A DNA stretch of 64,000 nucleotides. It comes from Reclinomonas americana ATCC 50394. Lineage: Eukaryota. The position numbers and the translations under genes are program-made. The stretch lies in assembly GCA_048213135.1 (NCBI GenBank), contig PS015085.1:27456-91455 (forward strand), written 5' to 3'. This document shows, piece after piece, positions 20,556 through 59,287 of the stretch. A model generated the notes under the pieces. It made no database searches and had not been told where the DNA came from. It was given only the letters and a program-made list of their open reading frames with translations. Numbering within the stretch: position 1 is the stretch's first letter; every line of letters starts with the position of its first letter.

Positions 20556-23500
20556 TTACAGTTTCTCTGCCACACTGTCGTCCACCACAAACGACATGGG
20601 CGGCGAATCACTGTCCGAGTTGCACTCGTTGGTGGCAGTGGCGGCGCTGGTGGCAGCTGGTCTGGCGGTCGGCAGTGGACTCTCGATTTCCGTGAGCAGC
20701 GATTCGCGCAGAGAGCCAAGTTCCGTTGTGGCCTCACTGTCGCGATCTTGGCCCTTGGAGGTACGCGAGCGCCGCTTGGCTAATCGGCGTCGCTCGCGGC
20801 ACCAGCGAATGAGGCGAACAGCGGCACGGAAGATGTTCAACGCCACCGGCAGCACAAGGATGCCAAGCATCACGGACTGCAGAATGACAAACAAGCTGCG
20901 AAAAGCACCGCCGAAATGAGCAATGGCGACGGAGACAAGAGTCAATTTACATGGCATCACGCAACAGGTCCTTGTAGTATTGTGCGGCCGACGTGCTGGC
21001 AATGATGCCGATCCACATGAGACCAAGAAGACAAATGGTCTCCAGCTGCACGCGGCGACACGAATGAGCAAGCAGTAAAATCGATGACATACCCGCACAG
21101 GTAACGCAAGGCGCACATGATTGTTCCACTGCGAGTGGGGAGCGCGAATAAGTGAGCAAAGACAATTTTCCACGCTTCAATCGCCACGCACTACGCACCT
21201 CGTTTGTGTACGGCATGATAAACAGGTGCACCATGAGCGCCACAAAGAGCGCCAGCGTCAGCAGCGTTGTCAGCAGCACCAGTGGAGGATGACCTGGAAG
21301 CCGAAGTGAGAGGCACGCTTGTTGAGCAGGAGAAAATAACAGTTTGAATTACCAGCCGCGCCCGTAAACACAATGACGAGAACCAGGCGCTTCAGGATCT
21401 GCACGACTTCCCACCAATACACTTGCGGGCGGTAATGCTGCGTGTGGTGCGTCGTGAGTTGCAAGAGCGACAAGCGCAACGCAAGAACGGCGCAGAGGAG
21501 AAATGACACTGCCCTCGGCGCTAAACGCATCTGAGTCACCCACCACCTTGTGTCTCCTCCCTTCTCTCTCTCTCTTTCTCTCCCTTCTCTCTTTCTCTCT
21601 CCCTCCCGCCTTCCCTCTTTTCTCTCTCCATCACCCACACACACCTGATACAGAGGTCCATACCGCCGCTGCAGTCGGCGATTGTGGAACAGCTGCCGGT
21701 CCTTGCCGATACGGCGCAGCCACACAATGAGGAATGTCGGCACGCCAGCACCGACCACGAGTGCGACGACGAGGAACAGCGGCATGAGGCGCCACCAGTC
21801 GGCATCGAAGCAGTAGAATGAGGGCGTCAGCGAATTGACGTGCTGCAGCTTCATGAGACACATGGTAGCAAGCAGGAGCCACACAGCAGAAAAAGAGTGG
21901 CGCACCGAATCCAGCAATTCGGAGCAATTGAAGAAGCTGAGGGTGGCCGACATCATCGGCTCATACAAGGACACACCCAACACGACCGTGGTTCGCAGGT
22001 ACGAGTTGAGAGACGACCATTTGGCGAATGCGCGGACCCACGGACGCCAGGCCGTCGTGTTGTCCTTGGCGCTGCTGTCAATGGTGCTGAAGGAAAGCTG
22101 CCGGGATGGAAACAAAGAGAGTCACACTCCATGATGTCGTCAACGGCACCCCGATTTCAACCCACGCGACAAACCGCCACTTCAACCGACTTGTCTCGCG
22201 CCACCGCCAAGATGATCCACGCGAGGATACGGTGGAGTACAAATTGGACCCAGAGCACCGCCAGGAACGCCACAGGCAGAAACACTTGCACCAGTACCTC
22301 ACCGTGCCCATCGATATAAAATGGACACAGGGTGGAGCCACCCTGTTGCGAAAATCATGTTTCTTAAGTCGCATGCTATGGGATACGCCGCTTCTCATGC
22401 ACACACGGGCACACACCGTAATGTAAAAGTGAAAGACGGCCTGCACGGTGGCCAGTGTCGTTCTGCGAATTTCGACAACCGTGAGAAAATGAAGCATTAT
22501 CACCTGTGCGTGCGTGGCGTGCGAGACGCAACGATGGGTACATCACAAAGGCACCGATCTGCACTGAAAAGAAGATCATGCGCAGCGCCGGTGTGCTGTT
22601 GCCTTGCGACAAAATGTGCTGCGCTAGCACAAAGCACACAATCACTATCACAGTGAGGAACACGATTCTCCCGTGCCAGTGCGGACACACTGCGCAAGCA
22701 AACGGCATTCAGGAGAGAGCCCAGTGGCACGACGGGCGAATGTGAATGCTTACGAACCGAAGCAAGAGTGGAACCACTCCGAGTAGCCGTCCATGCACCG
22801 ACCGCACAGCGGCGACGCACTATCGCGGTTGCTGTTGGGCTTGCAAAATGTGCCATTCACAACGACGGGAGTCGACGGTTCGCTGCCGAGACTGCGAGTG
22901 ACCACCGTCTGCGGCAGGCCCACGGCCCACTCCGACTGGAAGCCGGGCTCGTCGTCGCCACCACCGTGCGAACAGAAATCGAAAGGACACAGTCGAGGTC
23001 TGTCGAAAAAGAAAGCAAGTCAGGCACTTGAGATATGCCACGTACCACAATGGTGTACGCAACTGAAGGGCGCCACTCGGCAGCACCAGCGGCCAGTACT
23101 CGGAGAATACCGACAGCTGCCCACCGCCAGAACACACTAAACCCTGCTGACATGGCTGGCAAGTGGTGCTGGTGGGCGTGACCTGGTAGAATCCACTCGG
23201 GCACGACACACAGCCGACTTGCGGCTGCAAACCGAATCCCGGCTGACAATCCGACAGGGCGATCTGGTACGTCACCGCACCTTGCAGCGTCAGCTGCGAC
23301 GACGAGACTGAAATCGCACTGGTGCTCCCGCTGGAACCAATCGGCGTCAGCACCGCCGTGGCGTTGCCATCGAATGTGTTGATCAACTGCGAGATGACCT
23401 GCGCTCCCGCGTATGTGATATGTGATGCGTGAGCGACGGAGAACACAAGTGAGAGCACAATCGACACGAGATGCGACCAACCGTGCACGATGGGCAGTAG

Positions 23501-24605
23501 AACTGCACCGGAAAGCCAACTATGGTGTTGATGAAGTTGCCGAAAATGTCCATCACCAAGCACGTGATGATTACCGACGACCCTGCCGACAACCGGGAGT
23601 GAGGGAGAGATTCGTTTGCGTAGCACAAAGCCTCCGCAAACCTGGCTGAATGGCAGCTGGTGCATCGGAGCAGAACAACGAGTATGGTGCTGCACGCGTT
23701 AAAGGAAGAGAATTTCAGATTGCATCGACTGTGCGGAAGGCATCTCGACTCCACGCACCGGACGCAGTGCTGTTGCCATACATGGCAGTGCTCGTACCAA
23801 ATACGTTGGCGTAGACACTGGTAAGTGCAGGGCCAGGGCTGCTGCTGGCTTCGAAGAGAGACTGCAACAGTACGTCGCTGCCGTCAAAATAGATCGCTCC
23901 ACCACCGCCTGTGAGCAATCGGTGAGAGAAGAGAAAAAGATGACAACGGCGGCATTTCGCGACGAACCCACGCCGTCTGTCAATTGGGCGCCACTTGGTG
24001 CCGACATTGTTGCCGCATTGTTCACAAACTGATTTCCAGACAGACTGACGCCATACGGGTACTTTACAGAAATGTGTTGTGAGGCGATGCTGTAGCGCGA
24101 GACGCACAACAGGGAAGGAAATCGCGTACCGCAGTCGGGCCAAAATTTTCCTGCACCCATTGAATCACTGTGCTGTTCACCATCTGCAAACAGCCTCGCG
24201 TCAGTGAGACACGCACACGAGAGAGGGAGAGATGAGACAGTAGCCGCAACAATTGCACCCCCACGGAACGCTGTGTTGCTGTTGAAAGTGGAGTTCACCA
24301 CTGCCGTTATCAGCGTCCCTCCGATATTCATCGCGCCTCCGTCGGAGCGGAGAGAAACACACTGCAGAGGCGCCGTTAAGAATACATCGCGGGTCTTGCG
24401 CAGGACAGCGGAAAATAAAGCACCTCCGTAAACGTGCAGTTGACGACGGATGCCATTGCGTAATTTTGCGACGTGAAGCCAGACAGTACCAGGCAGCCGC
24501 CCATATAGGCTTGGTTGTCAATGAACTGGGTGTTGGTAGCGGTAAACACCAATCCGTCTGTGGCCAGCACGCAACCGCCGCAGTTGGTGGTTCTCCCTGC
24601 AACAC

Positions 24606-31556: not shown

Positions 31557-33454
31557 AATAGAAATTGTGTGTGTAACGAGAGAGATGAGAAAGAACAGGA
31601 GCGGCAGCGACAATAAACAAATAGATGAAAGAGATGAGAGACCAAGGAGAAGAGAGGGCGAGATGCAAGACACTCGCGCCAAGAAGACAGAGTGCGTCTG
31701 TGCATGGCGTACCTCCGATAAACAGCACATACTGGGTGCACACCACGGAGATCACGTTGTCGACGAACTGGGACGCGCCCGTCACAATCAACCCGACTGT
31801 GAGCTGAGGGCTCGTGTAAAACATGTTCTGCATGGTGGAGCAGAGAGCGCATCAGCGTCATAGAAAGAAGAACAGCACTGCTGTGAGCACGAAAGCACCT
31901 GCCAGACACCCAATGCAGCGCCAAATATGACCAATGTAGAGTTGTTTGTGGGTCTGACCAGCGGTTGTGTGACGGTAATGTGGTTCTCCGACATGGTGAC
32001 GTTCGTCATCTCGACTTCAACCAGAGACAACTGTGGCGCACAAGAACGAGGGGCGTGAATGAGTGCGCAGGTGACAGCTAGAGAACTGGCCAACACAACG
32101 AACCGCCATCGGAGTCCCTTGTGTCTGTAGGCATGCGTGCGCGTGAGTAAGAGAGCAAGAAAGAGAGAATGAGGTGTGAGACGGAAAGCAAACCGAGGGC
32201 GGTGAGGTGCTGACATCCAGCAGCAGACCAGCTCCGGCAACAGAAAAGGGCAAGACAGCTGCCTCGCCGACGATTGCGTTGTTGTTGATAATCGAGTTGA
32301 CGACGGCGATGAATGAGGGTCCCTGGATACGCATTCCGGCACCACCGACACCGGGGTTGACAGTAACGTACGGGCCAACACTGGCGGGGCGAGACGGATA
32401 TGCCGGCGGATTGGCGACATTGATGGTGTTGCCGGTCGCCGTCACGTTGTAGATCAGCACGCTGCTGCTCTGCGGGGCAAGGAGCCAAGTTCCGGTCTCG
32501 TAGTTGGTGAACGACAATGTGGCGAGCGTAACGTTCACGGGACCGCCAGACGACGAAATGAATTCTGTGAGCAAGGAGCACCCAATTATGAAACACAGAA
32601 ACAGGGGGAAATCAAGAAACAAGATTGGATGCTCACCCATGACCAGACCGCGACCGACACCCGACCCGAGGAACGTGCTGGACATGACCAGAATCGGGAT
32701 GGCAACTTGCGGGGAGAACCCCGCTCCGTAGGTGGCCAAGTGTACAGACAGTGGTCCCGGACCCACCACCGTCAACCCCGATACACACAACGGCCCCGCT
32801 ATCACCACCGTGGGGCCAGTCACAATGTCCACCAGGGAGACGGCCGCGCCAAAGGCTGTGGAGGCCGACGGCGCCGGCTTGAGCACCACCGCACCCGGAG
32901 TGGGGTCCATGCTGATCAACCCGAAGCCGCCGCCTGACGCGACCATGGTCAGCGTTTGCGTGAGGGTGTAGTTGCCGGGCGTGAGGTAGATGACGGAAGA
33001 TGCCGTGTAGATGTTCGGGATGAGACTTGCGGCGGTGGTCAGGGTGCTGCGAGGGGAAGGGAGAAGGATGGGGAAGGGGAGGGGGGAGGGGAGGGGAAAG
33101 GTAGAGCAGGGAGGAGGAGGGAGGGAGGGGAAGGGGAGGAGGGGAGGAGGGGAAAGGGGGNNNNNNNNNNNNNNNNNNNNNNNNNNNNNNNNNNNNNNNN
33201 NNNNNNNNNNNNNNNNNNNNNNNNNNNNNNNNNNNNNNNNNNNNNNNNNNNNNNGAGAGAGAGAGAGAGAGAGAGAGAGAGGAGGAAGTATGAAGGTTGG
33301 GAGGGACGGTGAGCACATGCGCCTCCAAAGAGAGACGCTGTGAATATGTGTGTGCACGATAGAAAAACACATTTTTCAGAGTGGAAGCGCTCTCTCAACT
33401 GGGGGCACAAAGCAAACGCACTCGGCACAGAGAGAGAGAGGGGAGAGAGAGAGG

Positions 33455-39976: not shown

Positions 39977-42900
39977 TGAGTGTTCGACGCGAAGCAAGCG
40001 AGCCATGGAACATGCACATATTTCAAGGGATATGTGGTGGGCGAGGAGGGCAGCATCAAGGCGCTCTGCTCATCAATACTTGAACAACGATACGCAGAGA
40101 GGCAAGAGGGCGGAGAGAGAGGGAGCGATGAGTATATCGCACAAGAGTAAGCGAACCGCGGCACACACACATGACAAGGCTACGAAGTGGGCAGCATGCA
40201 GGCGCTCTGCTCATCGATCACTAAGCGATGATATGCGAGGAAAGAGGGCGAGATGAACCACTCCAAGAAAGTGACACACAATGCAAGAGATTGCAGACAT
40301 GAGGCATGAGGCGCTCAGTTGCTGTGCGCACAAGGGGCAAGAGAATCGAGAGAATAGACACTGCGTAACCGCTTCGTCCATGCAGAGAAAAGAGCACCGT
40401 GCCTCGATTGAAATCACCACCCCCTTCCCTGTGTCAGCTCACCGCGGCCTCAGGTGGGATCTGCTGCAACGGACCGCGACTCAAATAATTGTCAAACGAC
40501 AACAGATTGGGGACCTTGACGCCGGCAAACTTGTCCAATCGATGCATGTAGCGCAGCTCGTCGCTCCCAAAGCCAAACTCGCGCAGCTTGTACTGCTTTG
40601 CAATAAACATGCCTTGCAGCATCTGCAGATGCACGAGTCAGACAAACGTTCTTCCTTCCCCTTTCCCTCCTCTTCCTCTCCATCGCCACACCTGCTGCAA
40701 TGCGCTGGCCAGCTCGGTCGTCCGCTCCACCTCCTCAATCGGCAACATGGTCGACAACACCGTTAACCGCTCCAGCTTCTCCAGCCGCTGCGCCAACACG
40801 CTCTTGTTCTTCTTCTTGGCCTTGCTCTTCTTTTGCTTGCCGCCACCAGTGCGACCGTGCTTGGCGTTCAGCACGCCTGCAAGTCAATGGTGAGTATATG
40901 GACAGATATCAGCTCTCACACGACACAAACCTCTCTCGTCCAGCTCCTTGAGTTTGGTGCTCCACGCTTGCAGGATGCGGTCGGCCATGATGAAATAGTG
41001 TCCGCGCACCGCTGCCACATATGAAATGTACCTGCGCGGATAACAGCGAGGTGAGTATCAGCTGCCAGGAGCAAGACGGAGGAGAACGAGAGCAAGAGGG
41101 AGGAGAACATGAGTAAGAGGGAGGACACCGAGAGCAAGAGAGAGAGAGAAAGCGAGAGCAAGAGAGAGGACACAGAGAGCAAGAGGAAGGACAACAACGA
41201 GATGAGTTTCAGTTGTCGAGAGCAAGAGAGAGGACAACGAGAGCAAGAGGGAAGACACCGAGAGCAACAGGGAAGACAAAGAGAGCAAGAGGGAGGACAA
41301 CGAGAGCAAGAGGGAGGAGAACGAGAGCAAGAGGGAGGGCAAAGAGACGAAGAGGAAGGACACAGAGAGCAAGAGAGAGGGCAACGAGAGCAAGAGAGAG
41401 GAGAACGAAAGCAAGAGGGAGGACACAGAGAGCAAGAGACAGGACAAAGAGAGCAAAGAACAAACAATCATACAGGGTGAGACCATCTTTTACATCGTTG
41501 TACGATGTCTTCATGTGCGTCAAGGGGAGAACAGAGAGGGCGAGAGAAAGTACGGTGCAAATGTGTGCTTGTGGGCGAGTGAGAGAGACAAACCACAGAA
41601 TGAATGGAACCTCCTCGGCCGAGTACAGATCCAACTCAAAGCCGAGGAACAGGTATTGTTGCATGAGCGTGGCGGCCACATCGACGGTAAAGAAGAATGA
41701 ACAAATCGGTCTCTCCATGGTGGTCTGTCGCAGCAGGTGAGACATCTCACGAGAAAGAAAAAATGCACACACGCGCGCAACTCCTTCGCCCTGCAGAAAC
41801 TTGGCCGCATCCTCAAACTCATCAAACGCCACTCGGTCCACCTCCAGGCTCGCCGACTGGAGATTGTCGTACTCGCGGAAGATGTTGCCAATGCGACGCC
41901 GCAGCAGCGCGCGATTGGAGCAGTAGGCCTTGACGTAGTCGCGGAAGAAGCGGCGGAAAAAGTACAACCAGTCCGCCGCCTCCGGTCGCTCCCACGTCTC
42001 GCGTGGCAGGGGGAGAATGGTGAAGAGCATGTCGCCGAGGGTGTGCAGGCCGAGGACCAGGTCGTGGATCATGAAGAGGTTCTGCGGGAGTGGGGGAGGG
42101 AGGGTGTGAGGAGAGTGAGGAAGGATGAGGGAGAAGAGGAGAGAGAAGATGACAAGTCAAGTGATTATCCCCCAATCTTTTCCCCTCACGCAACATTCAA
42201 CAAACTGCGTGCGACGATGCTCGGCTGCGACGCTGAGTAGGTGTCGAGGAACGCAAAGCAGTCGCGCATGGTGCCACAGCGGTACACGTCACACATGCGC
42301 GCCAGATCACGAACGTGGTTCACCAGCACTGTGCGGCGAGTCTGGGGTGATCACAAGTCAGCGCGTCGTCAACACAGGTTCCCTCTCGCGATGACACAAA
42401 CAATCAGTGCACTACGGACCGGTGAGAGAATCACATCCGCCGGCGCAATCGGTCCGATACTCGATGGCCCACGCGCAGAGGCCAGCACGCGGCCCTTGGC
42501 GTTCTCCAGCTCCTGCTCAGACGGGAATGCGTCCAGAATGCGTTGCAGCAGCGATTCGGCTGTCGTCGACGCGCACAATAAACAACACAGCGACGTTGCG
42601 TTGTGAGAGTATTGCAAGACATACCGCGATGGAAGCACTCCTTTGCAGCCTCGTATTCGGGTGTCCGCGCACCGAGCAATCCGAATCCCTCGGCCAGCGC
42701 GCATCGGTAGACGATGCGCAGTTCAATGCCGGCGGCGGCGGTCTTGTCTTGCTCTGAAAGTGGGAGGGGAAGGGGGAAAGGGAGAGTAAGAGAAAAAGAG
42801 GGAGAGGTGTGTGAGAGAGAAACTCACAGCGAGAAAAGGACAGAAACAAGAGAGACAAAGAGATGAGAGAGCGCGCGCAAAAGCGACGCGCACAATGAAA

Positions 42901-45502: not shown

Positions 45503-45580
<78 letters not shown>

Positions 45581-45951
45581 TAGACGAACGAACGAACGAA
45601 CGAACGAACGTTACGTACGTACGTACGTACGTACGTACGTACGTACGTACGTACGGTACGTACGGTACGGTTACGTTACGTTACCGTTACCNNNNNNNNN
45701 NNNNNNNNNNNNNNNNNNNNNNNNNNNNNNNNNNNNNNNNNNNNNNNNNNNNNNNNNNNNNNNNNNNNNNNNNNNNNNNNNNNNNNNNNNNNNNNNNNNN
45801 NNNNNNNNNNNNNNNNNNNNNNNNNNNNNNNNNNNNNNNNNNNNNNNNNNNNNNNNNNNNNNGTGAGAGGAGTGTTCTCTCTCTCTCTCTCACTACACAC
45901 ACACACACACACACACTCCCACATACAGGCACACGCTCACACACTCTTTCA

Positions 45952-46134: not shown

Positions 46135-46885
46135 GTCGCTCATCTCCCCTCTCACACACACACACTCACTCTCTCACACTCTCTCACACTCTTGTCCCAC
46201 TCTCTCACACACACAACAACACTGACTTGCGCGCTGTGAGAATGATGTTGCAACGAAGAGACAAGTTGTCGCAGGACACGAGATGCAATGAATGTCTCCC
46301 TCTCTCTCGTCTCTGTTCGTTGCTGCAGATGCACTCCTCCTCTCACAACAAGGTGATCGTTAGCTTGTCGATGCAGGTTGCACGGTTGTCGCCTGTCGAC
46401 GTTGATATCGGACGGCGACGTTGAACGATTGCGAACGAGCTGTCGGACCCCGTTTGACAGAAGTGTAGATGTGGAATGTGCACTACGTACAAGTAGTCGC
46501 AGAGAACGCAGAGGCATCAAGAGCCAGAGAGAATACGAAGAAGAAGACGTCGACGGAAGACTTTCACTCTTCTCGCTCTTCTCCCCTCTTCCTCTCGCTC
46601 TCGCGCTCCCCCTCTTCTCGTGCGTGGAATGGCCTCTGCGAATGCTACACTTGCATTCGTGCAGCAACACGCCACACAAGAAGCAACCACACAAAAATTG
46701 ATATCACGACGTTCGGATCCAGTATTTCACATTTCTCTCCCGTATGCACTCAGCTTGCGGCGGTGTTTTGTGAGCGACACAGCGTGTAATCGTTATAGTG
46801 TAGCAGGCACCAAGAGTACAGCTGGAATTCCGTCACAGTCCCGTACAATGCAATATATTGCTATTTTCGTACACACGACTCAAAC

Positions 46886-46948
<63 letters not shown>

Positions 46949-47154
46949 AGACGAAGTAGACAACAACGTAACGAAAACCGAACTAACTTACGTAATAATG
47001 TATCGACTAGTACGTAAGTTAAGTAAGAGATAGTAGAGTCGTACGACGACGAAGNNNNNNNNNNNNNNNNNNNNCGTACGTACGTACGTACGTACGTACG
47101 TACGTACGTACGTACGTACGTACGTACGTACGTACGTACGTACGTACGTACGAC

Positions 47155-47204
<50 letters not shown>

Positions 47205-47231
47205 TGTGTGGAGAGAGAGAGAGAGAGCAAG

Positions 47232-49672
47232 ATGCACAATCGAAACAACCGCCACCACTACAGTGACAGTGAGAGTGAGAGTGAATACGGCGAAGAATTA
47301 GAAGACGACGATGCGTCTTCTCACTCTTCCTCTTCCTCTCGTTCTCGCTCTCGCTCTCCGGCTCGCTTCTTTCCCGGACTGGTCTCTGCGAATGTTCAAT
47401 TTGAAGTCTTGCAAGAACAAGCCGCGTGGCTTCCCCCGCGTTCCCCGCTAGGCGGCGATTATGATGAAGAAGATGAGGAGGCAGTGGCGGAGGCGGAGGA
47501 GGTTGATGAGGAGGAGCTGAATAGGCCGAAGAAGAAGAAACGAGTGGAGGTGAGTGTGTGTGAGAGAGAGTGATTGCGTGCATGCATGCATTCTCGTATC
47601 CGAACGCGCTTCCTCATTTCTCCTTGACTCTCTCTCTCTCTCTGTCTTGTGGCATTCACTGAGTTGCTCATCTCCTCTCCTTCGTCACTCACTGACTCAC
47701 TCTCCACTCATTCACTGTGACATTGCTTGCAGCAAGACACAAGTTGCAGTCTCTCTTCACTTGGTTCTCACTCGCCCAACTTTCCTCCTTCCGCTCTCTG
47801 AGTCCCTCATATCATCTTCTCCCCTTACTCACTCACTCACTGACTTGCTCCCGCACTCAGTCACTGTGGCACTGCTTGCATAGTGCAAGACACAATGCAT
47901 TCTCTCTTCACCAAGCTCCCACTCGCTCAACTTTTCCTCATTCCAGTCACTGAGTTGCTCATCTCCTCTCCTCTCTTGTTCTCTGACTTGCTCTCTGACT
48001 TGCTCTCTCTCTCTCTATCACTCACTGTGACAATGCCTGAGCATCGCAACGCACCATTGATCTCTTTCTTCATCAATGTCCTCTCCTCGCTCGCCGTGTT
48101 GCAGTCTCTGAGTCTCTCATCTCCTCTCTTGCTCACTGACTTGCTCTCTCTCTGTATCAATGCCTGAGCATTGCCTTCTCTCTTCACCAGTCCCAACGCA
48201 TTCTCATTCACTTTTCTCCTCTATCTCCTCGCCTCTCCTTTGCCTTCCCTCCTTCCCTCCACAGCCCCTGGCCCCCGCCCGCAAATCCGGCCTCACAAGA
48301 CCCCTCCGCATGGCGATGCCGCTGATGAGACCCGCCGATCTACTACAACCGCTGCCGCCACTGCAGCACTTGCCGCCGTTCCCGCCACCGGCTGCTCCGT
48401 TCCAGCTGAAGGAGGTGGCGGATCCCTTCAAGCATCTCGTCGTGCAGCTGGCGCGCGAGTTGGATGCCGTCATGGCCGCCGCCGGCTTCCCGTCGTACCT
48501 GCATGATGATGTTGATGACGACGATGATGCCGACGATGAGGAAGAAGAAGCAGAGGAGAAGGATGACGTGGAGCATCAGCAGGCGCGCAAGATGAAGAAG
48601 GAGGTAGAGGCGGCGGCTGAAGAGAAGCAGCAGGAGAAGAAGGAGATGCCGGAGGACGACAAGGAGGAGCAGGAGCAGTTGGCGGCGTCGGTGCGCTCGC
48701 CTGGCGCCCCGCTGGCTGTTGCGGATATCTTTGAGGTGCGTGCTGTGTGAAGCGCCTGGTGTGCGACTTGATTCCTCACCAACATCGCTGTGTGCCAGAT
48801 CGAGCGCGTGCAATGCATGTTCTGCCACGATCAGACGTTCGAGTACATTGTGTTGCCCGAGTGCTTGACGCCACACCCGCTGTGCTACGGCTGCTTCACG
48901 TGAGTTTCTGCTCGCAGTATGCGTGTGTTCTTGACTCACCATCTTCTCTACGCAGCGCGTACTACGAGGCGGAGTTGCATTCATTGCAGGCCGCCGACGC
49001 ATGTTTCAAGTGCACTTGTTGCTCGGCGGTGCGTATTTAGTGTGGAGCGTGTGAGACTCTCGCTGACCTTCAATGCAGGAGTCGGTGGTGCGCCGCGGAA
49101 GCGACATTCACGAGTTTGTGTGCCTCTCGCCGGTTCAACTGAAGCGCAAGTTTCGTGTTTCTCCTTCTATTGTTGCAGCTTGGTGGCGGTGCTCATTTTT
49201 CTGTGACAGTCGCGATGGTGCGGAGGGCGTTTTTGACAAGCACGACGCCGCCAGCCTTGTGTGCTCACTGCACCGTGCTCCACTGACCCTCGTCGATCTC
49301 AAATCCATGTCGCCGTTGTGCGAGCAGTGCGCGGCGAGGTTGGTGATGGTGCTGCGCGCGTTTCTATTGAAGTTGCGTTAAACTCGATAAGCACAGCGCG
49401 CCAAAGCAGTACACGCTGGTCAAGGCCGACGACGACGCAGCGGCGCAGATTCGTACGAATGTGCGCGCAACGGTGAGTGCCTGGCAGGTGGTGTGTGTCA
49501 CGGTTGGGACAGGGGAGGTTGTCAGAGGACTTTGCACCCTGCACTCGCTTGGCAGATGGAACGCAGAACCGCCCGTCTGATAAGTTTGTAGATGTTGGCG
49601 AATGTGTTCTTCTGTCTCTCTTGTCCTTGTTCAGTTAGCTTGAAGATGTGCCTTCTTTCCCTCTTCTCACTG

Positions 49673-49704
<32 letters not shown>

Positions 49705-50310
49705 GGCCCCCGTAGTCTGCAGTATTGAGAAGCAGAAGAGCGTTGTTCTCCTGCAGTTTATCATTCAAAATCGTCGGCGCTTGTGTTCTCTCTCTTCTCT
49801 CTTATCTCTCACTTTCTCTCTCTCACTCACTCACTCACTCCCTCTCTCTCTCTCTTTCTTGGCCTCCTTAGCTCGCATTGCTGAGGCGCAGCAGAGTGTC
49901 GTTCTTCCGCCGCATGTCTCTTGAAATCGTCGACTCGTTCTCTCTCTCTCTTGGCCCCATCAGCACAGCGTCATGCTCGTGCAGTTCGTCATTTGTAACG
50001 TGCAACAGACTTGAACATCGTGTCCTCTCTGTCCCTCGATCTCCTTCTTGGCCTCCTTAGCTCGCATTGCTGAGACGCAGAAGAGTGTCGTGCTCTCTCT
50101 CTCTCTCTCTCTCAGTCATGTGCGAGAATTCTGCAAAACGCTGAGGTTTACTTTTCCACTCTGCTCTCATTCCTTGTCGCTATTGAGATGGAGCAGTGTC
50201 GCTCATTCTCTTCCTTTCTCCTCTCTCCCACTTCCCCCCTTCCGTCTCCCCCTTCCAACCCACACTTATTCTCATTCCTTGTCTCTCTTGTCCTTCATGC
50301 CGTTTCCCTC

Positions 50311-50342
<32 letters not shown>

Positions 50343-53231
50343 CTTTCCTTCTCCCCTTTCCCTTCCCTTACTTTCTCCTCCCCTTCTCTGTCCCCTTATC
50401 GCCCGTCCCCTAATATATTCCCTGTGTGTGTAGCGAGACTACGTTCAAAGGGCCACCAGCAAACTCCGAGTGGCGGTGGCCGAGCGCTCACGCAACGTGG
50501 AGGCGATGAAGACGGCGCTCGCAGCCGCCGAGGATCCTGTTGCGTGCCGCCACCCCGTCCGCCTCTCCACTCGTCCACTTCGCGCGCCACTCACCCCTTG
50601 CAGGCGGAGATTGATCGCCTGGTGGACCTTTTCCGGCACCAACTGCAAGACCTCGTGGCACAGGAGGTGCGAGCTCGCCAGCTCGCCATTCAGCGTGAAC
50701 AGGGTGCGCACGTGGTCTCCTCTTTTTCTTGATATCTTTTCTTGTTGTTTATTGATTGACCTCACCAGAGTTCTTGTTGCGCGCCAACCGACAACTGGCG
50801 GAGCTCAATCCCACCAGCGAGTACTTGCAGAGACTTGACATTGCGCGCTGGGAGTCGCTGGACAAGACTCTGGTGGTTCGTGCCGCCTTTCTCACGTCAC
50901 CGACAGAATTCGTGTGTTGCTCATCATTCTCTGCCGCATCACGCACACAGGACTTGCAGGAGAATTTCGAACGTGTGCGCTCCGCCGTTCGTGTCGCCCA
51001 CTCTGTGACCGCCGACGGCGACTCGATCAATCGCTTCGTGCGCGTGTCTGCCTCGCCCGTGGCGCAGACGTCGGCCGCGGACATGCTGGCGGGTGAGTTG
51101 ATACAAATAATGGCTTGTGCGAAACAGCCACTGACACCCTCCGTGTCGCGCAGGTGCCTTGGCCGGTATCAGTGAGAAGCGTCTCAAATCGCTTGCCGAG
51201 TCTCCCGATGCGCGAGCTGCCGCTGCTCGTCCTCCCCCTCTCGCCTACTCTGGCGTCACAGTGTTCGGCGTGCCCTTGTATCGGCAGCCAGCAGAGCAGC
51301 CTGTGGTTTCTGCCCAAGTCGGAGATCGCTCGGCCTCTCCGCTTCCGCCTGCAGATGGTGTTCGAATCAGGGCGTCGCCACAGCCAGCAGCGGGTGGTTT
51401 CGCATTCGGTGCTGCTGCTGCAGCGCCGGCCGAGGCACGTGCGGTTTCGCTCTCACAACGAGCCGCGTTCAGATTAGGTGTACCTGCACAACCAGCTGCG
51501 GCCAAATTTGTGTCGCCTGCTCCGTCTCCGCCGCCAGCGGAGGGTGGTTTCGGATTCAAGGCGGAAGCGCGTGCGGTTAGGTTCGGGCAACGTGCTGTGT
51601 CTCCGCAGCGTGCTCCTCCGCCAGCAGCGGCTGGTTTCGGATTCGGTGCTGCAGCACCTGCACCAAGTCCAGTGGTTGCAGCAATTGAAGCGGCCGCGGC
51701 AGCTGCCAGAGCGTTCCCGAACCTGAAACCTGCACCGCCTGGTTTTGGCATTGGTGGCGCCGCGGCTGCGCAGGCTGCAAAACCCGCATTTGGATTTGGT
51801 GGAGCCGCTGCTGCTGCTGCACAACCTGCGCAACCTGGTTTTGGCCTTGGTGGTGCCGCTGTTGCTGCACAACCTGGGCAACCGGCTTTCGGATTTGGTG
51901 GCGCACAGGTCCAACCTGCTGTTGGATTTGGTGGCGCCGCTGCTGCTGCACAACCTGCGCAACTTGGTTTTGGCTTTGGTGAGTCGGCTGTTGCTGCACA
52001 ACCTGCGCAACCTGGTTTCGGCTTTGGTGGCGCCCCTGCTGCTGCGCAGGCTGCACAACCTGGGCAACCGGCNNNNNNNNNNNNNNNNNNNNTTTCGGAT
52101 TTGGTGGCGCACAGGCCCAACCTGCTGTTGGATTTGGTGGCGCCGCTGCTGCTGCGCAACCAGCGCAACTTGGTTTTGGCTTTGGTGGCGCCCCTGCTGC
52201 TGCGCAGGCTGCACAACCTGCGCAACCGGCTTTCGGATTTGGTGGCGCTGCTGCTGCTGCACAACCTTCGCAACCGGCTGTCGGATTTGGAAGTGCCGCT
52301 GCTACTGCGCAACCTGCGCAACTTGGCTTTGGCTTTGGCGGGGCGGCTGCTGCTGCACAACCTGCTTTCGGCTTTGGTGGCGCCCCTGCTGCTGCGCAGG
52401 CTGCACGACCTGCGCAACCGGCTTTCGGATTTGGTGGCGCTGCTGCTGCTGCACAACCTGCGCAACTTGGTTTTGGCTTTGGTGGCGCCGCTGCTGCTGC
52501 GCAGGCTGCACGACCTGCACAACCTGGTTTCAAACTGGCAAACCAGCCTGCCGGCGGTGGCTTTGGATTCGGCTCTCCCGATGCTCCACCGGCGGCGGCT
52601 GCTGCGAAGCTTGCCCCCGTCGTGAAGAATAAGTCGGATGCTGCGGGGAACGGAAATGCGCCCAAGGAGGCGCCGGCAAATATGCCGAAGGGAAAAAACC
52701 CTGCTGCCCGTGGGTTTGCGAATCCAGCCGCAGGTTTCGACGATCCGCGTGCCGGTCAATTGATCGCCGGATTCGCTCCGGGTTCACGCCCAGACGCCGT
52801 TGGATTCGGCGGAGGCGCAGCCATACGCGTGCACGCGGCTCCGCAGCCCGTTGGATTTGGACCTCATGGTGGTGCTGCTGTTCCGGCTGCCGTCGCTGCC
52901 GCTGCTGCTCCTGTCCCTCCAAAAGGCAAAGTCAGCGACGATGCAATCGACCGCCCCCTCAACCCGTTCCTGCGATTCGCGCGTGCGAAGCAGGAGGAGT
53001 TCAAAGCGAAGGTTTTGTGGGGCGTTTGTGATGCTGTGGTGTTCCTATCCTTGTCAACTGATTGTTGTTGTGCAGCATCCGGATCGCCCGGCCTCGGTGA
53101 TTGTGAAACTCTTGGGTCAGGCGTGGAAGGAAATGTCGGACGCCGAGAAAGCCGTTGCGTCATGCGTGTGTACCTCGTGATTGTCATCTCTCTCGGCACT
53201 CAAAAGTGTCACTCTTCTGCAGACCTACTGA
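47232..53231 (+). CDS. TRIM-like RING + degenerate B-box + coiled-coil protein with FG repeats and a C-terminal HMG box
   Basis: About 14 phase-compatible exons: acidic N-terminus with NLS-like RPKKKKRV; RING CMFC-x12-C-x3-H-x2-C-x2-C...C-x2-C; B-box-like CSLH...LCEQC; helical region 50434-51090; ~24 (G/A/V)FG(F)G repeats; HMG box DRPLNPFLRFA...HPD....IVKLLGQAWKEMSDAEKATY*. Confidence 0.78.
51390..52860 (+). repeat. Coding FG-repeat array (GFGFGG separated by Ala/Gln/Pro spacers)
   Basis: GGTTTTGGCTTTGGTGGCGCC / GCTTTCGGATTTGGTGGC units separated by GCTGCTGCACAACCTGCGCAA. A 20-N gap at 52073-52092 lies inside the array. Confidence 0.9.
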
Positions 53232-53300
53232 GCAAGAGACACACACGTGAAGATTGTCTATGCGATTCTCTATTGTTATTTGGTAATGAAAAAAGCGAGG

Positions 53301-57713
<4,413 letters not shown>

Positions 57714-58054: not shown

Positions 58055-59287
58055 TCACGGCATACACTCCCTCCCCCGCACCACCCCCACCTCCACCACT
58101 CGCCACTCACTCCACTCACTCCTCGCCCTCCCCGGCGGCGTCTCCCGCTCCCGCCACACCACCTTGCCCGACGCCGTCCGCACCACCATCGTCTGCGACA
58201 CAGTCGAAAACGACGCCGCCAAATGCTCTGGCTCGTGACCGCGCACAAACACCGCCTGACAGCACACCAGCTCATGCTCGTCGCGATAGACACCGGGCCG
58301 GAAGAGCGTCGCATCGCGTAGCCGCTCGTCCACGGGTGGCGCGTCGGCATCGGACCTGCGCTCCTTGTTTAGCAAAGCACACTCGGTGTCGTCGCTGCCC
58401 AAACGAAACATGAGCTCCGCCAAGCCATCGCACAGCTGCTCGACCAGTGCCGACTCGTCCTCTTCACTCGCCTGCAGTGACTCCAGCAGCCTCTGCAGTC
58501 CATCGCGCACCACTTGCGTCTTGGGTCCGTGCGTGGCCTCGTCCAACACCGATCCGTTCGACACGGCCAGCAGCAGAGGCGGGCGCAGAGTGCGTCGCGG
58601 GATCTCCTCATTGTCGTGTGTGGAAAGAGGGCGATTGGTGACGACGAGGACCTCGTGCTCCAGAGGCGCAAACGCGTTGCAGGTGGTCAGTGAGAAGCCG
58701 TGGAAGCGGTGCCACTCGGCAATGTCGTCGGGTGACTCGTCTCCACTGGCGATGTTGCTGTGAGGAGGGAGTGAGTGAGAGGGAAGGAGGGAGGGAGGAG
58801 AATGAGAGAGAGACTCAACACGACGAGTTGTCCTCGCGATCGGGCTCCGCTGCCTGGTGCAGGTGGCGCCACGACATCGCTCACTCGATCGTCGTAGTTG
58901 GTGAGAGCGACAAGGCGACCTTTGAGTCACATGAGTGAGAGAGAGAGATGGAGGAGAAGTGATTGTGTGTCTGTGAGCGGACCTGTGTGGGTGTTGAGAG
59001 CGATAAAGGAGCCTTGGCTTTTGATGTCGAGTGGGCGCAGGATGCCGGTGGAAGGGTCGATGGAGGCGGGTTCACTGTCGCGGCCCTGTGAGTGAGAGAA
59101 AGTGAGAGTGGGGGAGAAGAGAGGGAGGGAGGGAATGAGGACGCACTGGTACTTCGTCGCGATTGAAGGCCAACACCAGTGGGAATGCTGTGTGGAGTGT
59201 GAGTGAGTGCTTTAGTGAACGTGGGAGTGGTGAGGGTGGGGAAAGAGAACTTGGGTGCATGCCGATGGCCAACACGAGGAGGCACAT
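58055..59287 (-). CDS. TANGO2: TANGO2/NRDE-family protein (alternative duplicate first exon with ATG at 59439)
   Basis: MCLLVL...PLVLAFNRDE, LD....GSFIALN..GRLVALTN, SRGQLV, FHGFSL, AVSNG.LD...PK, STVSQT. Five exons. Confidence 0.8.

Follow-up and report, generated by a model that had tools for sequence, protein, structure and literature searches.

A predicted RING, helical and FG-repeat gene with a truncated HMG box in a eukaryotic genomic stretch

The TRIM/RBCC E3 ligases, for example TRIM5alpha and PML/TRIM19, carry a RING-HC finger, a B-box and a coiled coil in that order, followed by a variable C-terminal module. TRAIP and the members of the HEI10/Zip3 class are RING and coiled-coil E3s without a B-box. 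RanBP2/Nup358 is a phenylalanine-glycine (FG) protein with E3 (SUMO) activity, and in oncogenic fusions of the NUP98-HOXA9 type an FG region is joined to a DNA-binding domain, which is reported to drive chromatin-bound condensates. Here we describe a predicted gene that invites comparison with each of these systems. It lies on the plus strand at positions 47232-53231 of a 64,000-nucleotide (nt) stretch of eukaryotic DNA (hereafter the window), which is ~55% G+C and contains 19 runs of N (assembly gaps). We know of no protein that combines a RING and coiled coil, FG repeats and an HMG box, and a literature search confined to titles and abstracts returned no directly relevant paper on this domain combination, on TRIMs outside animals or on GFGFG motifs.

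We give about an even chance to the explanation that we prefer, in which 47232-53231 would be a single plus strand gene of at least 15 exons, encoding ~1,200 residues or more with a RING, a helical region, an FG-rich region and half an HMG box. The likely product is a single nuclear RING E3 whose tail, of FG repeats and half an HMG box, is unusual; as a TRIM it is not demonstrable. As in a TRIM, the RING-HC comes first, a Cys/His motif with the spacing of B-box2 site 1 stands ~40 residues further on, and a heptad region of ~170 residues is followed by a C-terminal module of the kind that varies between members. However, no B-box is detectable and the second zinc site is absent, the RING stands behind an acidic extension of 268 residues, FG and half an HMG box take the place of a C-terminal SPRY, NHL, PHD-bromo or the like, and the lineage is without a close relative in the databases searched. 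The RING and coiled-coil E3s that lack a B-box may be the most economical functional analogy; they share the RING, a long coiled coil, a disordered tail and a function linked to the nucleus or chromatin. They differ in placing the RING at the N terminus and in having tails with PIP or SIM motifs or a high Ser content, where the present protein would have FG repeats and an HMG box.

The many FG clusters in a low-charge disordered region, and the presence of FG and a putative ligase in one polypeptide, recall FG nucleoporins and RanBP2. In contrast to those proteins, the spacers here are Ala-rich, the match to Nucleoporin_FG is insignificant, no pore-anchoring domain was found and the ligase module is a RING instead of the IR region of RanBP2. 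As for HMG-box proteins (SOX-18, TFAM, SMARCE1), the profile match runs from the N-terminal strand through helices 1 and 2 into the first turn of helix 3 (positions 2-48), but the stop follows directly after EKATY, helix 3 is mostly missing and nothing HMG-like lies beyond. The resemblance to NUP98-HOXA9, an FG low-complexity region directly upstream of a DNA-binding domain, is one of analogy only. Here the gene would be a natural one, in which a RING and coiled coil lie upstream and the DNA-binding domain is cut short, and there is no homology between the two.

The predicted chain runs from ATG 47232 to TGA 53229-53231, and the features within it are listed in Table 1. A preliminary description of this locus had proposed phase-compatible exons across the region, and this was confirmed: 14 exons can be joined in compatible phases, with GT-AG boundaries at 12/12 introns and neither a frameshift nor an internal stop in any exon. 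Ten of the introns are 50-75 nt in size and the other two are long. The proportion of G or C at third codon positions (GC3) is 0.65-0.88 in every non-repeat exon after exon 1, typically ~0.75. Read in order, the product has an acidic, Ser/Arg-rich start with the string RPKKKKRV, an acidic exon 2, a Cys/His-rich part, a helical part, an FG-rich part and an HMG-like end that reads EKATY-stop. The net charge of residues 1-268 is -33, and exon 2 gave only low-complexity matches below threshold in Pfam. The exact length of the protein is not fixed, because an assembly gap (20 N, 52073-52092) falls inside the repeat of the FG exon. Pfam, PDB, AlphaFold2 (AF2) and homology queries were made with unspliced window sequence, exon by exon, whilst the spliced product was examined by pattern, shuffling and composition. 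Rfam and ARAGORN tRNA scans of the window found nothing within the gene.

Table 1. Features of the predicted gene, in window positions.
Feature	Position	Strand	Description
Exon 1	47232-47549	+	106 codons; Ser/Arg- and acid-rich; donor GTGAGT; sole open frame across the stretch
Intron 1	47550-48264	+	715 nt; GT-AG; CT fraction 0.706; 152-nt unit repeated 1.9 times
Exon 2	48265-48735	+	157 codons; Pro-rich at first and strongly acidic further on; start region offers alternative in-frame Met codons
RING-HC (C3HC4) finger	48799-49028	+	Exons 48799-48899 and 48956-49028, split by a 56-nt phase-2 intron
Exon 5 of the preliminary description	49079-49338	+	Likely two exons, 49079-49149 and 49210-49338
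Cys/His motif	49262-49330	+	C-x2-H-x7-D-x7-C-x2-C; the 'degenerate B-box' of the preliminary description
Helical heptad-periodic region	49397-51092	+	Exons 49397-49472, 50434-50538, 50604-50703, 50769-50875 and 50951-51092; ~177 residues
Intron 6 (putative)	49473-50433	+	961 nt; GTGAGT...TAG; CT fraction 0.688; three copies of a 68-nt unit (repeat family D4)
Large exon	51154-53011	+	Linker, FG-cluster region (~51393-52921) and first third of the HMG box (52949-53011); holds the gap 52073-52092
Truncated HMG box	52949-53231	+	Exons 52949-53011, 53076-53153 and 53223-53228, plus TGA

The RING finger is read from residues 269-319 of the spliced product, where C-x2-C-x13-C-x3-H-x2-C-x2-C-x17-C-x2-C supplies all eight ligands. 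The general RING pattern (C-x2-C-x9-39-C-x1-3-H-x2-3-C-x2-C-x4-48-C-x2-C) has 0 matches in the 125,342 amino acids (aa) of the unspliced six-frame translation of the window, and was reached in 6/20000 shuffles of the 165-aa Cys-rich stretch. The consensus exists only after splicing, which speaks strongly for the finger as well as for the junction 48899/48956. At the level of the consensus, then, the RING-HC that had been claimed for this position is borne out.

At the other end of the chain, the final 21 residues of exon 12 match positions 2-22 of the Pfam HMG_box profile (PF00505; 14.7 bits, E 0.044) and the profile continues in exon 13 with positions 23-48 (20.2 bits, E 8e-4). The two matches adjoin exactly (22/23) at the predicted splice, and the simple sum of 34.9 bits lies above the cut-off of 25.4. 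Moreover, 21/23 PDB matches of exon 13 are HMG-box proteins, the best being SOX-18 (E 0.0025), with TFAM and SMARCE1 also among the best. The last exon adds TY and the stop, giving coverage of profile positions 2-48 plus TY out of 69. Because the stop follows EKATY, most of helix 3 (approximately the last 19 of the 69 positions) is missing, as had been noticed earlier. A lost helix 3 beyond the stop was considered and rejected: when the terminal TGA was read through (TGA=X), the next 23 codons matched no Pfam family, and the sequence becomes AT-rich. No alternative acceptor that would supply a helix-3-like continuation was seen by eye. Judged by these profile and PDB sequence matches, the HMG box is real but truncated.

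Between these two domains lie the helical and FG-rich regions. The hydrophobic power of the helical region at a period of 3.5 residues is 0.88, versus a shuffle mean of 0.20, and this value was reached in 46/5000 shuffles; the region holds 4 Pro and 2 Gly. The helical exons matched no Pfam family and the PDB matches of exon 8 included no TRIM. These results support the coiled-coil region that had been proposed here, in the form of a heptad-periodic helical region.

The FG region, as assembled, has 502 residues with 36 FG dipeptides in 23 clusters, of which 13 are FGFG, and the clusters are mostly 11-17 residues apart; the ~24 xFGFG repeats counted previously are thus a fair count of clusters. 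Its composition is 33% Ala, 18% Gly, 13% Pro, 9% Phe and 8% Gln, and charged residues make up 7%. At the DNA level the region is built of tandem repeats, with periods of 48-129 nt, and its GC3 is 0.40-0.44. In the non-repeat flanks, the sole open frames are those linking to the coiled-coil exon upstream and the HMG exon downstream, and in those frames both sides of the gap give the same GFGFGGAAAAAQPAQP-type repeat peptide. The Pfam profile Nucleoporin_FG matched exon 11 at E 1.7 with 10 bits, versus a cut-off of 32.2, and gave nothing on exon 12; no FG protein reached significance when exon 12 was searched for homologues, and no exon matched a Pfam pore-anchoring domain. The label 'nucleoporin-like' therefore describes the composition of this region, for which it stands, and not a family.

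Exon 5 of the preliminary description very probably contains one further intron, on the evidence of its sequence. The candidate (49150-49209) is 60 nt in length, reads GTTTCG...ACAG, and is in frame and stop-free with a CT fraction of 0.65. Its GC3 is 0.35 (7/20), versus 0.74 across the rest of exon 5, and GTT-type donors are found at 5/12 other introns. Excision would remove 20 codons, two of them for Cys, and keep the downstream frame. An alternative intron of 29 nt (49150-49178) was rejected as too short compared with the 50-75 nt of the other introns. The corrected exon model, with this extra intron, is a practical result whether there is one gene or two.

Downstream of this intron, the Cys/His motif of exon 5 has exactly the ligand spacing of the first zinc site of the B-box2 consensus. 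Its second zinc site, as read by eye, shows D, S, K and T at the four positions, which are not ligands. A single copy of the motif is present in the six-frame translation of the whole window, and it was reached in 6/20000 shuffles, although the pattern was picked after the sequence had been viewed. The full B-box2 pattern is absent, and no Pfam family was found at E<=10 for either 49079-49336 or the intron-corrected 49211-49336. Phmmer searches of the PDB with exon 5, full or shortened, returned no B-box and no TRIM; those with exon 3, exon 8 and the shortened exon 5 gave cytochromes c, a designed repeat protein or nothing. Among 1.84 billion representatives, the sole HMMER match of exon 5 was a 590-aa bacterial-type SpaA prealbumin-like-repeat protein (E 1.2e-5), which was discarded as spurious because its score is the sum of three weak stretches. 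The ESM Atlas gave no usable match with exon 5, and the recognition score of 1962 is under the 2300 that is reached by 91/100 known-family proteins. An AF2 single-sequence model of the 86-aa exon 5 (mean predicted local distance difference test (pLDDT) 60.3, predicted template modelling score (pTM) 0.48) was too poor for a fold search.

The degenerate B-box of the preliminary description is thus not borne out, its profile score being insignificant, and what is left of it is the spacing C-x2-H-x15-C-x2-C. The label 'TRIM-like' rested on that B-box and is not supported either. RING, Cys/His motif and heptad region do stand in TRIM order within the predicted exon chain, with the putative 961-nt intron as the joint that links the Cys/His part to the bulk of the helical part. 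However, the gene product cannot be filed as a TRIM, because the B-box is the defining feature, was tested for and was not found. Nothing in the analysis bears on the role of a restriction-factor-like sensor that had also been suggested, and that suggestion is not supported.

If all parts belong to one protein, the acidic N-terminal region with its basic cluster, which resembles a nuclear localisation signal (NLS), would take it into the nucleus. The C3HC4 RING, from its complete motif, would recruit a ubiquitin-charged E2 and so make the protein an E3 ligase, and the periodicity of the ~177-residue heptad region suggests that it could form a dimer or oligomer. Going by composition, the low-charge stretch of at least ~500 residues, in which Ala, Gly, Pro and Gln abound and ~23 FG/FGFG clusters are embedded, may provide multivalent cohesive contacts, for example in condensate partitioning or transport-receptor binding. 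An HMG box without most of helix 3 would at best add a weak auxiliary contact with DNA or chromatin, or may be a relic.

Intron 6 is the critical joint of this structure, since it separates the half with the RING from that with the coiled coil, FG and HMG. On the plus strand, the C+T of both long introns (Table 1) compares with 0.59 in the short introns and 0.417 in the upstream stretch 46400-47231. The intron-like stretch of a convergent helicase gene next to this one has a C+T of 0.149 on the plus strand, and so 0.85 on its own sense strand. Because that stretch shows the same bias, long CT-rich stretches on the sense strand look like an intron feature here. Exon 7 cannot extend upstream, because there is an in-frame TAG at its acceptor. 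The 21 codons before its first Met have a coding-like GC3 of 0.71 and the 64 nt upstream are 77% CT, and for both reasons exon 7 looks internal. Moreover, helical character continues from exon 6 into exon 7 and the phase fits. With the CT-rich long introns, the GC3 of exon 7, the phase and the helical continuity in its favour, a single gene is, as far as the sequence goes, probable among the structural alternatives, though well short of assured.

We regard it as unlikely, if a serious contender, that there are instead two tandem plus strand genes, a RING protein (exons 1-6) and then a coiled-coil/FG/HMG protein. The first would end by read-through ~35 codons after 49472, the second would start at the Met of exon 7 or via a non-coding leader, and the 961-nt CT-rich stretch would be intergenic or an intron of the 5′ untranslated region. 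In keeping with two genes, this stretch exceeds every other non-coding interval in length by a wide margin, its acceptor alone is TAG (the other 11 are CAG), and reading on past the exon 6 donor meets a stop at 49578, within 35 codons. There is an in-frame Met 22 codons into exon 7, the genes are tightly packed (the convergent helicase open reading frame (ORF) ends ~50-70 nt from the stop of this gene) and the searches with exons 5 and 12 found no homologue with the fused architecture. Yet the stretch shares its plus strand CT bias with intron 1 and the intron-like stretch of the neighbour, unlike the region upstream of the ATG; coding-like GC3 begins at the acceptor and not at the Met, the phases are compatible, and the helical character carries over the joint. 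Several further points weigh against the single nuclear ligase. With regard to the domains, exon 3 alone, which is part of the split RING, matched zf-RING_14 at E 0.072 with 14 bits versus a cut-off of 26.6 and had no RING among its matches in a PDB sequence search; exon 4 alone, with the rest of the RING, matched no Pfam family; and an HMG box that lacks helix 3 would probably not fold by itself. Almost every one of the six frames is open across the FG repeat DNA, for which reason ORF length is weak evidence there, and the gap interrupts the record of the frame. Exon 1 is the least certain exon of the model. RPKKKKRV is present at its end (47523-47546) as a basic cluster resembling the classical NLS, as the SV40-like string reported earlier, but the GC3 of exon 1 is 0.55 versus ~0.75 in the other non-repeat exons and it is directly preceded by (AG)n/(CGTA)n microsatellites and a gap, so that the NLS may not belong to the protein. 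Homologues were also lacking: 0 of 34 candidates were significant for exon 5 among word-indexed longer proteins, 0 of 279 pattern matches were confirmed in a metagenome scan with it, and none of the best 7999 candidates by shared words for exon 12, which holds FG and the start of the HMG box, reached E <= 0.001. As a control of coverage, a piece of the neighbouring DEAH helicase found 90 proteins among 1127 candidates, the best 34% identical, from scattered eukaryotic groups. Because this control shows poor sampling, the lack of a homologue is weak evidence in this lineage. We see only a very slight chance that the whole is a decaying gene or an assembly artefact, that is, low-complexity ORFs and two real domain relics joined by permissive picking of splice sites. 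Such an origin would fit the 19 runs of N, one of them inside the repeat, the openness of that repeat, the truncated HMG box with nothing recognisable past the stop, and an exon 5 without any relatives in the searches made. It sits poorly with 14 exons free of frameshifts and internal stops, a RING that keeps all eight ligands, the GC3 of the non-repeat exons after exon 1 compared with that of the hidden intron, and splices that precisely restore the RING consensus and the HMG profile.

The remaining explanations concern what a single gene would encode. A highly diverged true TRIM/RBCC, with a B-box2 minus its second zinc site and with FG and HMG as a lineage-specific module in place of SPRY and the like, is improbable in our view. 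The order of RING, Cys/His motif and heptad region is correct for one, as is the exact site-1 spacing of the motif, ~43 residues separate the last RING Cys from its first Cys (our own count, on the intron-corrected reading), and the pattern is as rare as described above, with the reservation that it was chosen post hoc. The B-box is nevertheless missing from Pfam and PDB results for exon 5 in either version, the one HMMER match is to the bacterial SpaA-repeat protein, the Atlas recognition score is too low, and D, S, K and T occupy the second zinc site. Still less probable, we think, is an FG nucleoporin specific to this lineage, or else a protein associated with the pore or the nuclear basket, whose FG region would occupy the transport channel and to which RING and HMG box would be accessory. 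Low-charge regions with regular FG clusters are the general make-up of cohesive FG domains, and both the spacing of the clusters and the share of charged residues here conform to it, as does the Nucleoporin_FG match, weak as it is. That match is far below its cut-off, however, the spacers are Ala-rich where Ser, Thr or Asn would be expected, no exon has a known pore-anchoring domain in Pfam, and no named FG protein scored with exon 12. Runs of the GFGFG type also occur, according to published summaries, in keratin tails, J-protein G/F regions and hnRNP low-complexity domains, which again speaks against a nucleoporin. A natural fusion, in a deep-branching or thinly sampled eukaryote, of an RBCC-ordered RING ligase, a cohesive FG domain and an HMG half-box, acting in the FG phase of the pore or basket or in its own chromatin-tethered condensate, is the boldest reading and a doubtful one.

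Were that fusion true, it would be a physiological counterpart of the NUP98-homeodomain fusions, and might show that RBCC-like ligases predate animals or arose outside them. More generally, if the locus is one gene it joins a RING/coiled-coil ligase, a pore-type FG region and a DNA-binding box. It would then be a natural test of whether FG domains outside the pore serve to bring an enzyme into a phase or onto chromatin, and also of whether animals are alone in having the TRIM-like domain order. With two genes, each half would be an ordinary lineage-specific protein.

Immediately upstream of the ATG, (CGTA)n microsatellites flanked by (AG)n runs lie beside gaps at 47075-47157 and around 45580-45690. 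Because these microsatellites and gaps adjoin the ATG, the true 5′ end of the gene and its promoter region are poorly assembled.

On the other side, a convergent DEAH-box RNA helicase gene occupies 53279-57560 of the minus strand (OB_NTP_bind, E 5.7e-20; GETGSGKTT and DEAH motifs read by eye). Its RecA2 domain (motifs IV-VI) was not seen in frames of >=40 aa at ~54100-56190, a part that holds two gaps and long CT-rich sequence on the sense strand; the RecA2 exons may have been lost in the gaps or be very short. The long introns at 47550-48264, 49473-50433 and 54110-54478 have a C+T of 0.69-0.85 on the transcribed strand, as that strand was named in the analysis, and contain local tandem duplications. 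The 1-kb C+T profile changes sign with gene orientation, and could be used as an orientation marker for annotating this genome.

Ordinary eukaryotic housekeeping genes flank the locus, both of them open frames on the minus strand: NAA35-like TPR repeats at 41212-42156 (E 1.2e-14) and a TANGO2 domain at 58058-59071 (E 4.2e-5). Two further open frames on the minus strand (22823-24517 and 32020-33159) have no Pfam match and contain Gly/Ala/Thr/Asn-rich stretches, which give the impression, and only that, of beta-helix or adhesin-type repeats. Lastly, the only Rfam/ARAGORN match in the window is a tRNA-Glu (anticodon CTC) at 815-887 on the plus strand.

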